In this document: positions 44,330-49,843 of the stretch, piece by piece
Position numbering within the stretch: position 1 is the first letter of the stretch
Layout: every line of letters starts with the position of its first letter
DNA from: Tissierellia bacterium
Lineage (GTDB): Bacteria > Bacillota > Clostridia > Tissierellales > Tepidimicrobiaceae
Direction: 5' to 3'
Length of the DNA stretch: 64,000 nt
Assembly (NCBI GenBank): GCA_036720245.1
Contig: DAIMNI010000001.1
Location: 33,053 to 97,052, forward strand
The notes under the pieces: model-generated
Seen by the model: the letters and a program-made list of their open reading frames with translations, nothing else
What the model was told of the DNA's origin: nothing
Database searches by the model: none
Position numbers and translations under genes: made by a program

Positions 44330-44388
44330 GATTTAGGTTTAATATCTGAAAATACGTGAAACTAAACTGCATATGAATTAATTATTAT

Positions 44389-44416
44389 AAAGATAGCCTT
44401 TAAGAGCTATCTTTTA
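44389..44416 (+). terminator. intrinsic terminator after pyrP
   Basis: aaagatagc-ctttaaga-gctatcttt followed by T. Confidence 0.6.
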
Positions 44417-44544
44417 ATATAAATATAATAATGGGGGGCAATATATTATTTTAACCTTTGCTGATACATAGACAAAAAGAAATTATTAAGATATTATATA
44501 ATTAAAAGAATATCTTATGATTAATATTTAGGATGGTGATGTCT

Positions 44545-45327
44545 ATGGATAATAAGGTGAAATCTTTTAAAAGGTGCAAAATTTTCAATGAGGACTGTAT
44601 AAATATACTTAAAACGATACCAGACAATACTATTGATTTAATTCTCGCAGATCCTCCATATAATATTAGCAAATATTCTACTGGAAATATCTCATTACCA
44701 AATAGGACACCATTAAATAATGATATTGCAAATTGGGATGACGTGGAAATAGATCCTTTTGATTTTATTGAAGATTTTAAACGAATATTAAAGCCTACAG
44801 GTAATATTTTCATTTTTACTAGTTATAATCAAATTGGAAAATGGCATGAGGCTTTTGATAGCGAATTTGATACTTTTCAATTTATGATTTGGCATAAAAC
44901 TAATCCTCCACCTAAAATTTACAAAAATGGCTTTTTAAATAGTTGTGAATTAATTATTTGTATGTGGAATAGGGGGCATACTTGGAATTTTACCTCCCAA
45001 AAAGAAATGCATAACTTTATAGAAACCCCTATATGTATGGGAAAGGAAAGGCTTAGGGATCCTAAGCATCCTACACAAAAACCTCTGAAGGTATTAGAGC
45101 ATATAATTAAAATAGCATCAAATGAAAATGATTTAGTATTTGATCCGTTTATGGGTGTTTGCTCAACAGGAATAGCGTCATTAAAATTAAATAGACTTTT
45201 TGCTGGTTGCGAAATTGATAAAAAGTATTTTGATGCTTCTGCAAAAAGGATTGAAAATTTTTATTTTTCTAAAGGACTAAATAACATAGTAAAGGAAGTA
45301 AATGAAGAATATAAATTAAATTGGTAA
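44545..45327 (+). CDS. beta-class DNA N6-adenine (or N4-cytosine) methyltransferase, M1 of the R-M block
   Basis: Motif IV ILADPPYNI lies near the N-terminus, and the AdoMet motif HPTQKPLKVLEHII...VFDPFMGVCSTG near the C-terminus (beta permutation, HinfI/CcrM-like). The start could be 44533, 44539 or 44545. Confidence 0.85.
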   Translation: MDNKVKSFKRCKIFNEDCINILKTIPDNTIDLILADPPYNISKYSTGNISLPNRTPLNNDIANWDDVEIDPFDFIEDFKRILKPTGNIFIFTSYNQIGKWHEAFDSEFDTFQFMIWHKTNPPPKIYKNGFLNSCELIICMWNRGHTWNFTSQKEMHNFIETPICMGKERLRDPKHPTQKPLKVLEHIIKIASNENDLVFDPFMGVCSTGIASLKLNRLFAGCEIDKKYFDASAKRIENFYFSKGLNNIVKEVNEEYKLNW

Positions 45328-45372
45328 TAATAAACAACCTAGCCCTTGTTAAGAGGCCAAGTTGTTTATTAT
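45327..45372. terminator. bidirectional hairpin between convergent M1 and R genes
   Basis: 12-bp stem ataataaacaac / gttgtttattat overlapping both stop codons. Confidence 0.55.
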
Positions 45373-47150
45373 ACTGCTTTTATTTGTTTCCAGCTACCTA
45401 TCATAGAATCTATATTTTTCTCCCATTCAGTAAATGTTTTATAATTGAAACTCGCATTATGGATACATTCTATAAGATCCTTAAAATCGTCAATATTTAA
45501 ATTATTGTCATAAATATATTGAATTATATTTATATACTGCTCTATAGTTATTGGAACTACAGGGACTGGTTTTCCAATCCAAGATTCCCTATTTAATATA
45601 AAAAATTGCCATATTGTTCTTACGTTCATTCTAGAGGATATAAAAATGCCTAGCACCTGTTTATCTTCATTTTTTTCTATAAATTTATAAACATGATCTA
45701 TTACAGATGAACCTTCGTGTTCCCATTGTCTAACCCCGGTCATTAATGATACCTCTGGTATTAAAATATAGCTATTTTTATATAATTCCATATCGGGAGT
45801 ATTTCCCCTTCCTGGTGCAAATGCCCTTGGGGTCAAATCATCTTCAATTTTAAAATTGCGTTTTACATGGTGTTCCCCATCTATAGCTACAAGGGATTTC
45901 CAAGTATTACATTCTAGCCATAAAGCAGCCATATCTTCATTACCAGCTAAAATATCTTGAAATTTTTCAATTATCCCGTTCCTTTCTTCACTTGTTTTTG
46001 AATAATGCTTAATAAATAATTCTTCATTTAACGATAATATTTTATCAGATATATCCATATCTAATTTCATTAAACTTTCCTTTTCGGCAATATCTAAAGT
46101 GCTCAATTTATTTAATTGATTTAAATGTTCAGTTGAGAGTAATTCTAAATCTTTCTTGTTGACTTTATCAATTTTATTTTTATATAAATTTAATTTATTA
46201 TTAACTATAAATTGAAGGTTATCCATGTTATCCCATGGTAATTCTAAATTATAGGGATTGCCATACCATTCCATGTATTGAATAAAATCTTTTTCTGTAT
46301 TGGGAACGAATTTATACTTATCTTGTAGAAGTTCTACTTTTAATTTTGCATGTTCAGGAATGAATATTTTGGTATAGTAGCCTCGACCTTTTTGGCTAAA
46401 TAAACTGGTATATTCTAGAGTTCTAAACAGGGAATCGGAATAGTCCCTATAATAGGTTTCGGGTTTATTTTTTATTTCGGGGAAATTTTTATTCATTATA
46501 TCTGTAAATATATAGGTAACTTTTTTGGTATTTAACTTATTATCTAGTTTTTCATATCTTTTTCGAAATTCATTTATTGAATCAACTGCTATATCTAATT
46601 TATCTATATGGTTACACATAAATAGGTATCCTATCTCATATTTGTTTAAGGTATCAAAATGTTTAAATATATTTAATATTAATTCCATAGGGAATACATA
46701 TATATTGCTGTTTTGATATTTTTTCGTTACAGCTGGGGATGGAAATTGCATCTTCAACAATATTTTTATAAGTAGATTTTCATCCATCTTATTATTTTTA
46801 ACTAACTCCCCTGTCTCTGTAATATTAATTTTACCACACTTATCTACATATCCTAGACCATAGAATTCGTATGTAGTTTTATCATTTCTGCCTGCTGATT
46901 CTGTCTCATTTATATCATTTTTACCTGATAAATAATCTTCGTAAGAAAAGTATTTTTCCTCTAATTCTTCCCAATGGGAATTATAGATGTACTTTCTTCT
47001 TATAGGATAAATAGTTTTATTATTAAAACTACTTATCTTATCTTCCGATTTATAATTCCAATTATGCCCTTCTAATTCAGCAAAATAGGGAAACCATTCA
47101 AAGGTTCTCAAAATACTCCTAGGCTTTGTTCGAAACCACCAAGAATTCAT
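45369..47150 (-). CDS. AlwI/BstNBI/PleI/MlyI-family type IIS restriction (or nicking) endonuclease
   Basis: 593 aa. It shares blocks with my recollection of N.BstNBI. N-terminal W..S/T..PRS....EG: here SWWFRTKPRSILRTFEWFPYFAELEG. Central LLKMQFPSP...LNKYEIGYLFMC. C-terminal catalytic block GNTPDMELYKNSYILIPEVSLMTGVRQWEHEGSSVIDH versus GNQPDMEIIYEDFIVLGEVTTSKGATQFKMESEPVTRH. Co-oriented just downstream of a methyltransferase. Confidence 0.7.
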   Translation of the reverse strand: MNSWWFRTKPRSILRTFEWFPYFAELEGHNWNYKSEDKISSFNNKTIYPIRRKYIYNSHWEELEEKYFSYEDYLSGKNDINETESAGRNDKTTYEFYGLGYVDKCGKINITETGELVKNNKMDENLLIKILLKMQFPSPAVTKKYQNSNIYVFPMELILNIFKHFDTLNKYEIGYLFMCNHIDKLDIAVDSINEFRKRYEKLDNKLNTKKVTYIFTDIMNKNFPEIKNKPETYYRDYSDSLFRTLEYTSLFSQKGRGYYTKIFIPEHAKLKVELLQDKYKFVPNTEKDFIQYMEWYGNPYNLELPWDNMDNLQFIVNNKLNLYKNKIDKVNKKDLELLSTEHLNQLNKLSTLDIAEKESLMKLDMDISDKILSLNEELFIKHYSKTSEERNGIIEKFQDILAGNEDMAALWLECNTWKSLVAIDGEHHVKRNFKIEDDLTPRAFAPGRGNTPDMELYKNSYILIPEVSLMTGVRQWEHEGSSVIDHVYKFIEKNEDKQVLGIFISSRMNVRTIWQFFILNRESWIGKPVPVVPITIEQYINIIQYIYDNNLNIDDFKDLIECIHNASFNYKTFTEWEKNIDSMIGSWKQIKAV

Positions 47151-47173
47151 AAGTATACCACCTTTCTCTAGTA

Positions 47174-48298
47174 TTAATAATTGGTAATTAATAAATGTTC
47201 AGTAGATCTATTATTTCGATTTTGGAAACTTACTAAATATTTTTTATCAAAAGCCAATACATTGAAACCTTTATTTAAATACAGTTCTCTAATTAGTTTT
47301 GTGCTTTTTATTACTAGCATGAATTTGGCTCCTGTATTATATAAATAGTTTGCAAGTCTCATTTGATCACTAGGGGTAAAGGACATTCCTACATAATCAG
47401 AAAACTCACTATCATATGGCGGATCTAGGAATATAAAATCATCTTTACTAGGATTTATAGTTTCAAAAAAATCTTCGAAATCTAGATTGTATATTTCTGT
47501 TTTTTGTAAATGTTGTACTAAACCAGGGCTTTTTAAATAATCAATTTTTTTGCCAAAGTCCTTTCTATTATAGGACATTCCCCCATATGGCACATTAAAT
47601 TTCCCCTGCTTATTATATCGAAACATACTAGCGTAACAGTATTCCCTAATGAAATAAAAAATAGCTGTATGAAAAGGCAAGCTTATATTATACTTTTCTG
47701 CATTATTATATAAATGTCTAAAGTGCATATAATAGGCTGACTTGAATGCTGTCTCAATATTATTAACTACATCTTCATCTGGTAGTTTTCCTCGCTCCTG
47801 CTCAATTTTTTTCATTCTTCCAGTTCTTCTAATTAAATTTTTCTTTATTTCTTTTATAAAATTTTCTATATTAATATTAAATGATGTAGATAGAACACCA
47901 TTAAATTCATGAGCATTATTTAAAATAAATTCTACGATAAAATCATCTAATTCAGATTTATTTATTTTATCACAGGAATAATGCTTATATTTATCCACAA
48001 ATAGTTGAGAATGTTTTTCCACAATTTTCTCTAAGGCCTTCCAATTATAATATATGGCATCGATTTTATCATAAAATTCTTGATTTCCTTCTTGTAACAT
48101 TTTATATAAATTAATTAATTCCTCAGATTTATCATTAATAATTATATCCTTATTTTCTATAGAAAGGTATACTGCTCCCCCACCTACAAAAGGCTCTAGA
48201 TATCTATTATAGTTTTCTGGCACATTTGGGAGTATGTGAACTAATTCTTGCTCCTTTCCACCAGCCCATTTAATAAAAGGGGTTAATCTATCTTGCAT
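47174..48298 (-). CDS. alpha-class (Dam/D12-type) DNA N6-adenine methyltransferase, M2 of the R-M block
   Basis: TPFIKWAGGKEQEL, EPFVGGGAVY (FxGxG) and FIFLDPPYDSEF (motif IV). 374 aa, longer than Dam, with a central insertion. Confidence 0.85.
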   Translation of the reverse strand: MQDRLTPFIKWAGGKEQELVHILPNVPENYNRYLEPFVGGGAVYLSIENKDIIINDKSEELINLYKMLQEGNQEFYDKIDAIYYNWKALEKIVEKHSQLFVDKYKHYSCDKINKSELDDFIVEFILNNAHEFNGVLSTSFNINIENFIKEIKKNLIRRTGRMKKIEQERGKLPDEDVVNNIETAFKSAYYMHFRHLYNNAEKYNISLPFHTAIFYFIREYCYASMFRYNKQGKFNVPYGGMSYNRKDFGKKIDYLKSPGLVQHLQKTEIYNLDFEDFFETINPSKDDFIFLDPPYDSEFSDYVGMSFTPSDQMRLANYLYNTGAKFMLVIKSTKLIRELYLNKGFNVLAFDKKYLVSFQNRNNRSTEHLLITNY

Positions 48299-48527
48299 AT
48301 TTTCACTCCTTATTTTTTATAATTAAATTATAACATAGAGATTGAAATACACAAAATAATTATATTAACTGGGTCTTATAGATAATATGGTAAACTAGTG
48401 AAGACTAAAGTAAAACTTGAGGGAAAAAATCACTAACTCAACTATCACTTGCTTGAAAATAAAATAATAAATCTGCTATTATAAGATTATAGGAGACCCT
48501 AAAAATTATATGAAAGGGAGAATGCAG

Positions 48528-49268: not shown

Positions 49269-49297
49269 AATATTAAGGATAGGAAACTATCAAATAA

Positions 49298-49377
49298 AAA
49301 GAGGAGACCCCATGCCTTAAGTTGGGATTATTTAAAGAGGAGACCCCATGCCTTAAGTTGGGATTTGAAAAAGAGGA
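49298..49377 (+). ncRNA. ToxI-like type III antitoxin RNA: 2.2 tandem 36-nt repeats
   Basis: Unit aaagaggagaccccatgccttaagttgggatt+4 nt starts at 49298 and 49334 (32/36 identical). A third unit starts at 49370 (aaagagga) and runs into the terminator stem. The period is exactly 36 nt. Confidence 0.7.
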
Positions 49378-49409
49378 TGAGGTAGTTTTACTACCTCATC
49401 TAGTCTTTT
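49376..49409 (+). terminator. hairpin (leaky terminator) between antitoxin repeats and toxin ORF
   Basis: Perfect 10-bp stem gatgaggtag-tttta-ctacctcatc, then tagtctttta (weak U tract). Confidence 0.65.
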
Positions 49410-49423
49410 AAAGGGTGATAAAT

Positions 49424-49843
49424 ATGGACAAAATTAGGTTTTTTAGAATAGATTTAGATTACATAAAATATCTTTGGAATTATGATAATAGAGTGCAGTA
49501 CAATATAAATGAATCTAATTCTTATAATAAAAGGAGACCATATATAGGGATTGTATTTAGGATAGGCAGTTTTAAATATTTTGCCCCATTAGAACATCCT
49601 AGAAAAAGCCATTTAAAATTAAAAAGCAACCCTCACATTTTGAAAATAAATAATGGGCGATATGGTTTAATTGCTTTTAACAATATGATACCAGTAAATG
49701 ATTCTGAACTAATAAGCTTTAATTTTAAAGATGAGGATTTAGCTTACCAAAAGATATTAATAAACCAATTTATTTTTTGTGATAATAACAAAAAACATAT
49801 TAGTTACCAAGCACAGAATACATATAACAAGGTTACGGTGTAA
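49424..49843 (+). CDS. toxN: ToxN/AbiQ-family type III toxin endoribonuclease (interrupted by in-frame TAA; frame continues to 49975)
   Basis: MDKIRFFRIDLDYIKYLWNYDNRV...RRPYIGIVFRIGSFKYFAPLEHPRKSH...YGLIAFNNMIPV...LINQFIF parallels my recollection of ToxN (FYTISSKYIEYLKEFDDKV...KAFIGIVLEIQGHKYLAPLTSPKKWH...LGLINLKFMIPI...LYKQLQFI). Confidence 0.75.
   Translation: MDKIRFFRIDLDYIKYLWNYDNRVQYNINESNSYNKRRPYIGIVFRIGSFKYFAPLEHPRKSHLKLKSNPHILKINNGRYGLIAFNNMIPVNDSELISFNFKDEDLAYQKILINQFIFCDNNKKHISYQAQNTYNKVTV

Follow-up and report, generated by a model that had tools for sequence, protein, structure and literature searches.

A predicted AlwI/BstNBI-family restriction-modification cassette with two adenine methylases in a Tissierellia bacterium

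Three adjacent genes in the window (the whole stretch of 64,000 nucleotides of Tissierellia bacterium DNA analysed here) appear to encode a DNA-cutting enzyme and two adenine methylases of different classes. The question that they raise is which methylase protects the host against the cutter and at which site, and whether that site is nicked or cut on both strands. We refer to the endonuclease as R, to its Dam-like neighbour as M-alpha and to the beta-class methylase as M-beta. From its sequence, the locus is predicted to be a real but ordinary bacterial anti-phage restriction-modification (R-M) cassette, composed of an AlwI/BstNBI-family DNA cutter and two adenine methylases. This cassette probably constitutes a functional, horizontally acquired Type IIS R-M system of the AlwI/MlyI/PleI/BstNBI family.

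The cassette and its place in the genome

The three ORFs were found at the coordinates given in the preliminary description (44533-48298). Its assignments of an AlwI/BstNBI-family endonuclease, an upstream Dam/D12 methylase and a convergent beta-class DPPY methylase were upheld by profile matches (Table 1). All three genes lie inside one indel relative to a genome of the same genus, G002, which lacks the R-M block and has 39 nt at the cassette position (a comparison with this one congener). The uracil-permease gene of G002, which shares 88% identity with the window up to 44337, directly abuts an XRE/toxIN region that is 82% identical to the window from 48406 on. The same three-gene set was also seen in three other genomic contexts, at 67-91% identity. 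Because the genes form a single 4,068-bp indel against the congener and the trio recurs in these other contexts, we conclude that M-beta, R and M-alpha are one mobile unit, which moved as a single 4.07-kb block.

Beyond the XRE/toxIN module stands a fossil of the M-alpha gene, consisting of 41 nt that are near-identical to 48258-48298 and are missing in G002. This suggests an earlier visit of a similar cassette to the same spot. The XRE gene (215 aa) was considered as a controller (C) protein and was ruled out, as it is located outside the indel and is present in G002 without the R-M block.

M-alpha and R are probably co-transcribed. A translational coupling of R behind M-alpha had been proposed; the co-directional order was confirmed, but the two genes do not overlap, and R follows after a gap of 23 nt with its own Shine-Dalgarno sequence, AGAAAGGTGG. 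The ATG of M-alpha is preceded by AAGGAG. A promoter scan of the cassette upstream region yielded 31 sites versus 31.4 expected, no better than shuffles of this AT-rich DNA. A probable bidirectional terminator lies between M-beta and R: a hairpin with a folding energy of -18.3 kcal/mol (z -3.9) when read on the + strand and of -24.9 kcal/mol (z -6.4) on the - strand, values that no shuffled sequence reached (200 shuffles).

Table 1. Features of the cassette and its surroundings (window coordinates)
Feature	Position	Strand	Basis
Whole R-M cassette	44338..48405	.	4,068-bp block here versus 39 nt in same-genus genome G002
M-beta, beta-class N6-adenine DNA methyltransferase, CcrM/HinfI-methylase type, 264 aa	44533..45327	+	PF01555
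Hairpin between the two convergent stop codons	45326..45375	.	Folding energies
R, AlwI-family Type IIS-like endonuclease, 593 aa	45369..47150	-	PF09491 RE_AlwI and fold match
Spacer between M-alpha and R, 23 nt, with R ribosome-binding site AGAAAGGTGG	47151..47173	-	Read from sequence
M-alpha, enlarged Dam/D12-class N6-adenine methyltransferase, 374 aa	47174..48298	-	PF02086, TIGR00571
Non-coding stretch of the cassette upstream of M-alpha, presumably with the promoter of the M-alpha/R operon	48299..48405	-	Inside indel
M-alpha gene fossil, first ~14 codons	50120..50160	-	Beyond XRE/toxIN module

The endonuclease and its mode of cleavage

The AlwI-type family match expected for R was obtained in a profile search (PF09491, RE_AlwI; E 3.8e-35; score 122 bits, cut-off 23.1), spanning profile positions 13-441 of 441. 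Residues 89-588 of R also match the chains of Nt.BspD6I (E 4e-24). An AF2 model of R (pLDDT 86) found 2ewf as its best Foldseek match (TM 0.69, E 2e-21). The C-domain resembles ss.BspD6I (2p14; TMt 0.82), and the N-domain is similar to the recognition domain of BpuJI. As modelled, R is built in two parts like Nt.BspD6I, the N-terminal domain for recognition and the C-terminal one, of the PD-(D/E)XK type, for cleavage.

The PDME...EVS block noticed earlier is present, with D453 and E466-V467-S468 of R aligning with D456 and E469-V470-T471 of Nt.BspD6I. E413 of R aligns to E418 of Nt.BspD6I after shifting a 3-residue gap, and residues E413, D453, E466, E479 and H486 are invariant across 24 homologues. 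In Nt.BspD6I, D456A and E418A are each inactivating (PMC6261011). By this alignment, the catalytic centre E413/D453/E466 of R is predicted to be intact.

The cassette belongs to the known AlwI-family R-M type as a further member. With the MlyI/PleI/BstNBI-BspD6I group (GAGTC, PF09491), R shares the full-length fold (TM 0.69 to Nt.BspD6I), the common E...PD...E-V-(T/S) centre, a comparable length (593 versus 604 aa) and, as predicted here, m6A protection. However, R is only ~19% identical to BspD6I, has no small subunit and is accompanied by an enlarged Dam-like partner and an extra beta-class methylase, and its site is putative. AlwI, EacI and GmeI (GGATC) have the endonuclease family and adjacent adenine methylation in common with R, but there one fused protein carries two methylase domains, one per strand (PMC3526280), whereas M-alpha is a single-domain Dam-like protein. 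The SfaNI-like systems (GCATC) of Caldicellulosiruptor and S. xylosus likewise use an AlwI-family endonuclease (PMC9799307, PMC10030836), although one of ~700 aa that is accompanied by two or fused methylases, unlike the cassette described here.

In the mechanism that we propose, R as a monomer would bind a short asymmetric word via its N-terminal domain, and the C-terminal PD-(D/E)XK domain would cut a few bases to one side of that word. A second R molecule would be recruited transiently and would cut the other strand, as AlwI and MlyI do. It seems distinctly unlikely that R is instead a natural nickase, restricted to one strand in the way of isolated Nt.BstNBI/Nt.BspD6I. Although the best structural match of R is a nickase and each chain has a single catalytic centre, the nicking by BspD6I/BstNBI reflects a missing small subunit (~186 aa) encoded next door, which is absent here and in 61 relatives, and the dimerising enzymes AlwI and MlyI cut both strands (PMC3017599). 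The wide conservation of the R-M pair also argues for a double-strand barrier. A tblastn search with residues 400-593 of R returned R alone in the genome, and no conserved third ORF was found beside R in the loci of the 61 relatives. As there is no small-subunit gene, heterodimeric nicking of the BspD6I type is unlikely.

The two methylases and the protection of the host

M-alpha was assigned to the Dam/D12 class by PF02086 (E 2.8e-37) and by TIGR00571 'dam' (171 bits, cut-off 115), and its motifs stand in the alpha order, FxGxG (FVGGG) at residues 37-41 and DPPY at 292-295. Its alignment to DpnM is split: residues 5-83 and 189-374 match, and ~100 additional residues separate these two blocks. 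The host genome also encodes a canonical DpnM-like methylase elsewhere. An M-alpha homologue adjoins R in 53 loci, and R and M-alpha occur as fused single proteins in L015, L025 and P0113. M-alpha is the conserved partner of R.

M-beta matches PF01555 N6_N4_Mtase (E 7.8e-34, 118 bits). Its best NCBIfam match is CcrM (E 1e-39), with a score of 136 that is far under the equivalog cut-off of 830, and its best PDB matches are 5hek (E 9e-30) and CcrM 6pbd (E 7e-29). It carries DPPY near the N-terminus together with HPTQKP. In motif I, M-beta has FMGVC instead of the FMG[VI]G seen in 73 of 82 relatives, and this substitution of Cys for the second Gly makes its activity uncertain. The M-beta residue aligned with R44 of CcrM is a Leu, which is not decisive for specificity.

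The relatives of M-beta mostly accompany a different nuclease. A PF09520 (TdeIII/HinfI-family) endonuclease of ~275 aa is found near an M-beta homologue in 55 of 80 loci, and M-beta is 62-74% identical to methylases adjoining PF09520 endonucleases in metagenome loci. The methylase is thus similar to that of the HinfI-type systems, which combine a CcrM/HinfI-family beta methylase with a PF09520 endonuclease, whereas no such endonuclease stands beside M-beta in the window. The only PF09520 endonuclease of this genome, a strong member of the family, is located on another contig, where its partner is an SPPY methylase. No named relative of the PF09520-like endonucleases emerged from searches of NCBIfam and the PDB, and in a plasmid search with M-beta the best match was 41% identical, with uninformative neighbours. 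In the tree, the AlwI-linked M-betas fall in two separate well-supported clades, from which M-beta appears to have joined AlwI-type cassettes at least twice. It is an add-on that occurs in two independent groups, the clade of the window and a clade of Bacteroidota.

M-alpha and M-beta also meet around other nucleases. Their homologues adjoin each other in 22 of 80 loci, and the two methylase lineages occur together in at least four separate lineages. In loci L071-L085 the frame is as in the window, but an HNH protein and a PF09520 endonuclease fill the nuclease slot and R is missing. The operon at L219 consists of a PF09520 endonuclease, M-alpha (57% identical), an Mrr_N protein and M-beta (65% identical).

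The presence of two methylase classes had been taken to mean that, at an asymmetric site, each strand has its own methylase; this was not supported, as most relatives have M-alpha only. When methylases within 4.5 kb of R were counted in 61 genome loci, an M-alpha homologue was the only one in 47 of them, in either gene order, so that a second methylase is not a constant part of the system. A close M-beta homologue was not found anywhere in the whole carrier genomes checked (5 of 5). The one-per-strand reading is unsupported because M-alpha is so often the sole methylase, because R-M-alpha fusions occur and because M-beta usually goes with PF09520. We consider it highly unlikely that the two methylases divide an asymmetric site between them, M-alpha taking the top and M-beta the bottom strand, with both needed, as in MhoVII or FokI-type systems. 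The trio is intact in four contexts of the window's clade (67-91% identity), and the MhoVII system (GATG/CATC) of Mycoplasma hominis does combine an AlwI-related endonuclease with methylases of the beta class (YhdJ-type) and the D12 class (PMC12898733). However, the MhoVII methylases are fused, each for one strand, whereas those in the window are separate and convergent. In many loci, moreover, the M-beta family stands alone with a small endonuclease, and the pair-only loci L001 and L038 share the well-supported clade of the window's trio in the M-alpha tree.

M-alpha alone probably protects the host; it would then have to methylate adenines on both strands, and the likeliest route would be a degenerate palindrome with R's word inside it (GASTC, GAWTC or GANTC). 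M-beta would then be a second protective methylase, borrowed from the small PF09520-endonuclease systems; reading the same or an overlapping palindrome, it would provide redundant protection. M-beta might otherwise be functionally unrelated to R, a leftover orphan methylase of a PF09520-type system that has its own site and merely travels in linkage. This is suggested by its convergent and separate transcription, the probable terminator hairpin lying between the two genes, by the other nuclease that its family normally serves and by the altered motif I of its clade. We judge it unlikely, as M-beta was kept intact while R diverged to 67%, was joined to AlwI-type cassettes twice independently and shares with M-alpha the repeated co-occurrence described above.

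The recognition site

The preliminary description held that the specificity is not readable from the sequence, and we agree: GANTC-type, GGATC and other words all remain candidates. Judged from the evidence below, R more likely than not reads a GANTC-type core, most likely a subset of GANTC that would be GAGTC by precedent, or GAATC. A word that is neither GANTC-type nor GGATC has a modest chance, and GGATC itself a slight one.

The precedent is BspD6I, the closest solved relative of R, which reads GAGTC (PMC3017599). Two further leads point to GANTC, namely that CcrM is the best family match of M-beta and that a newer Pfam table names PF09520 'HinfI'; counting against them, PF09520 covers more than one specificity. 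Homology has misled in the AlwI family, where GASTC was predicted and GCATC was found (PMC9799307), and the sites of the SfaNI-like systems cannot be read from homology (PMC9799307, PMC10030836). GCATC is not depleted in the carriers (0.98-1.01). A Moorella 'DNA adenine methylase' had a REBASE prediction of GASTC and a measured site of GAWTC (PMC6700114). A link between M-alpha and the Moorella methylase Moth_0026 (measured site GAWTC) is a tentative lead; no Moorella was present among the best 120 protein matches.

Of all 5-mers, GAATC/GATTC shows the strongest depletion in each of the three carrier sets (0.76, 0.72 and 0.41). In Lachnospiraceae, the median for GAATC was 0.65 in carrier flanks versus 1.03 in non-carriers (Mann-Whitney p 0.001, a value that overstates the case, as relatedness makes the genomes non-independent). 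In the window's own clade, GAATC stands at 0.69 and GACTC at 0.70. Distant regions of three carrier genomes showed little or no depletion of GAATC (G032 1.21, G033 0.86, G035 0.88), and the value of the window's own genome (0.86) is close to that of non-carrier relatives (0.89). GAATC/GATTC is not among the published AlwI-family sites that we found (GGATC, GAGTC, GCATC, GATG). We offer only tentatively, as a doubtful possibility, that R reads GAATC/GATTC, that M-alpha and M-beta are both GAWTC methylases and that the M-alpha...M-beta frame is a docking bay for exchanged nucleases.

It is also improbable that the cassette is a GATC-core system, in which M-alpha and M-beta would be a DpnM/DpnA-like pair methylating GATC and R would read GGATC like AlwI. 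Trios of an alpha methylase, a beta methylase and an endonuclease are classic for the GATC systems DpnII, MboI and LlaDCHI. The best solved match of M-alpha is DpnM (E 3e-29), and its nearest solved relatives (DpnM and Dam) are GATC methylases; M-alpha keeps K10, Y, M, R and P of their DNA-contact hairpin, which would fit GGATC. AlwI does read GGATC, but the AlwI-type GGATC systems have a fused double methylase and not one enlarged Dam (PMC3526280). GATC systems of the DpnII/MboI type, moreover, need a DpnII-family endonuclease, whereas R belongs to PF09491 and the partner endonuclease of M-beta elsewhere is PF09520; the host, too, already has its canonical DpnM-like methylase. Nor do the word counts favour GATC: GGATC is without depletion beyond that of GATC (1.04-1.10), non-carriers from the order of the window show a GATC depletion just as strong (0.53), and in Lachnospiraceae this depletion fails to separate carriers from non-carriers (p 0.13). 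Avoidance of GATC/GGATC was for these reasons rejected as a clue to specificity.

AlwI-family enzymes are the source of commercial nicking enzymes, and a member with a new word, for which GAATC is a candidate, would be a useful reagent. The sub-family that combines a single enlarged Dam with an AlwI-like endonuclease is large, with hundreds of endonuclease and thousands of M-alpha homologues. Because of this size, and as no measured site for the sub-family was found in the literature searched, one methylome would annotate many gut and digester genomes. As M-alpha and M-beta are found together repeatedly with differing nucleases, they provide a small example, open to testing, of nuclease exchange in R-M systems. 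If the GAATC reading is true, the docking bay would swap nucleases for the same core word, an AlwI-like Type IIS enzyme here and PF09520 with HNH elsewhere.

Family and cutting mode of the endonuclease

All three ORFs of the preliminary description are present in the window, and its assignment of the minus-strand protein R (593 aa) to the AlwI/BstNBI family was borne out by a profile search, in which R spans the entire PF09491 RE_AlwI profile (E 3.8e-35). Residues 89-588 match Nt.BspD6I chains (E 4e-24), and the BspD6I small subunit gives an additional match to the C-terminal third. The AlphaFold model of R (24 homologues as input; mean pLDDT 86) has Nt.BspD6I entries throughout as its top Foldseek matches (TM 0.69, E 2e-21), followed by the small subunit, on the C-domain, and then by the recognition domain of BpuJI, on the N-terminal part. 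The PDME...EV[ST] block noticed earlier is in place: D453 and E466-V-S pair with D456 and E469-V-T of Nt.BspD6I, and E413 equals its E418 after a 3-residue gap is moved, E-x-x-T-W being common to both. E413, D453 and E466-V-S are unchanged in 24/24 R homologues. The D456A and E418A mutants of Nt.BspD6I show no catalysis (PMC6261011).

BspD6I and BstNBI nick because the second strand falls to a separate small subunit, encoded next door (PMC3017599). No gene of that sort was found at the locus, in the own genome or in relatives. More probably, R would act as a homodimer and cut both strands, in the manner of AlwI and MlyI.

Coordinates of the cassette genes, neighbouring features and other loci of interest (G000, own genome; G002, same-genus genome without the cassette)
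Feature	Position	Details
M-beta	window 44533-45327 (+)	264 aa
R	window 45369-47150 (-)	593 aa
M-alpha	window 47174-48298 (-)	374 aa
ToxN-family gene	window 49296-49843	PF13958, E 3e-35
M-alpha start fossil	window 50120-50160	41 nt
DagR/LevR-type sigma-54 activator remnant	window 50194-50883	229 aa; full-length models ~940 aa
Decayed short M-beta-like pieces	L149 (G002:C8:20500-23500), positions 1118-1337	65-87% identical over 14-40 residues
R-M-like pair	G000 C64 8509-10618	canonical DpnM-like methylase; DUF6996/DUF6997/DUF7226 protein
R-M-like pair	G000 C118 11912-13599	256-aa protein; 321-aa beta-class methylase
R-M-like pair	G000 C40 4155-6798	530-aa SPPY methylase; PF09520 endonuclease (218 bits)

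Anatomy and mobility of the cassette

M-alpha, upstream of R, is a D12/Dam-class methylase whose AdoMet-binding N-terminal block is separated from the DNA-contact hairpin by ~100 extra residues. The convergent M-beta is a beta-class N6-adenine methylase with CcrM as its closest family. M-alpha and R are co-directional without overlap, since 23 nt separate them and a ribosome-binding site of its own precedes R. The convergent stop codons of R and M-beta flank a strong hairpin (z -3.9 on one strand, -6.4 on the other). In M-beta, AdoMet motif I is FMGVC for the window's clade (L062, L151, L154, L156), FMGVA for a sister clade (L063-L066) and FMG[VI]G for 73/82 relatives; every complete locus with an altered motif also has an M-alpha gene.

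A DNA search of 30 relatives recovered the flanks and none of the R-M genes. In G002, 39 nt stand between the uracil-permease gene and the XRE/toxIN region. The indel break points lie at window 44337 and 48406, and the R-M block is therefore a clean 4,068-bp indel. As this block alone is the indel, with the XRE/toxIN region present in G002, the XRE gene was rejected as controller of the cassette. M-alpha followed by R, with convergent M-beta, recurs as the same trio in three further, unrelated genomic contexts (67-91% protein identity); the cassette moves as one mobile unit. The M-alpha start fossil suggests repeated visits to the same spot. The sigma-54 activator remnant lies just past it, and 2.3 copies of a 36-nt repeat precede the ToxN-family gene, giving a type III toxin-antitoxin locus. 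The M-beta-like pieces of G002 adjoin a different beta-class methylase.

Methylase partners and possible nuclease exchange

The preliminary rationale for two methylases, an asymmetric recognition site, is not supported, as a scheme with one of them per strand does not fit the relatives. An M-alpha homologue, encoded on the strand of R and either before or after it, is the sole methylase in 47/61 genome loci encoding an R homologue (no other [DNS]PP[YFW] ORF of methylase size within 4.5 kb); R and M-alpha are fused in L015, L025 and P0113; and a close M-beta is absent from 5/5 carrier genomes searched whole. Because of these loci, fusions and carriers, M-alpha by itself would evidently suffice to protect against R, judging from gene content. 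In L005, L023, L043 and L052 the M-alpha homologue is broken into two frames at ~residue 40, with R intact. The R homologues of L008, L019 and L028, all on long contigs, lack an M-alpha within 4.5 kb, as well as any other recognisable methylase; R is there either solitary or protected by a methylase encoded elsewhere.

M-beta is a neighbour of R in the window's own clade and, by an independent association, in the Bacteroidota loci L033 and L045, and nowhere else. The R-linked copies fall into two separate well-supported clades of the M-beta tree, nested among M-betas partnering a different enzyme. A ~275-aa endonuclease matching PF09520 adjoins the M-beta homologue (62-80% identity) in 55/80 metagenome loci, and 22 of the 80 also encode an M-alpha homologue (38-52% identical). 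L071-L085 share the window's frame, M-beta, then convergent genes, M-alpha last, with the R slot filled by an Mrr_N-HNH protein and a PF09520 endonuclease; M-alpha copies of this type are nested within the AlwI-partner copies in the M-alpha tree. One Sulfurovum operon (L219) holds the PF09520 endonuclease (121 bits), M-alpha (57% identical), the Mrr_N protein and M-beta (65% identical). With >6,000 matches at E < 1e-20, M-alpha belongs to a very large family, some members of which are solitary and some accompanied by other nucleases. In L071-L085 and L219, M-alpha and the PF09520 endonuclease repeatedly enclose a 245-300-aa protein with an Mrr_N winged helix, to which an HNH nuclease motif is added in L073; this protein may be a second nuclease using M-alpha as its methylase.

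Recognition word

Words known for the AlwI family are GGATC, served by a fused double methylase (PMC3526280), GAGTC (PMC3017599), GCATC (PMC9799307, PMC10030836) and GATG/CATC (PMC12898733), and homology-based site predictions have failed before (PMC9799307, PMC6700114). Since either methylase is sufficient for the nuclease that it serves, the core that each one reads is probably palindromic or degenerate-palindromic and methylated on both strands, and we infer that two cores fit the family, GATC (inside GGATC) and GANTC (containing GAGTC).

We favour, with some reserve, a subset of GANTC as the word of R. CcrM is nearest to M-beta, whose usual nuclease partner family is labelled 'HinfI' in the newer precomputed Pfam table, and among solved relatives of R the nearest one has GAGTC as its word. 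A caveat is that PF09520 covers more than one specificity, and its strong member on C40 pairs with an SPPY methylase. For a Moorella 'DNA adenine methylase' GASTC was predicted and GAWTC measured (PMC6700114), so Dam-annotated enzymes of such specificity exist; this one is a candidate homologue of M-alpha, with no Moorella entry among the top 120 matches of the protein searches. In 3/3 carrier sets, GAATC/GATTC heads the list of under-represented 5-mers (0.76, 0.72, 0.41). In Lachnospiraceae, GAATC stands at 0.68 (rank 1) in carriers versus 0.98 (rank 199) in 16 non-carrier genomes, and in the flanks only at medians of 0.65 versus 1.03 (Mann-Whitney p 0.001, the related genomes not being independent). 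The window's clade gives 0.69 for GAATC and 0.70 for GACTC. Far from the locus, GAATC is depleted in two carriers (0.73, 0.66) and not in three (1.21, 0.86, 0.88). The own genome resembles its non-carrier kin. A GATC core, with R reading GGATC, appears improbable. In its favour, DpnM and Dam are the nearest solved relatives of M-alpha, which retains their hairpin residues; GATC depletion is uninformative because non-carriers of the window's order show it as strongly as carriers. A word other than GGATC or a GANTC subset has a small but real chance.

Across the whole of the own genome, the hexamer with the strongest under-representation is GATATC (0.23); GTCAC (0.37), GTTAAC (0.35) and GGATG/CATCC (0.74; rank 1 in relatives too) are also avoided, an indication of systems, present or past, that target these words. 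The cassette itself belongs to an already known kind of system.
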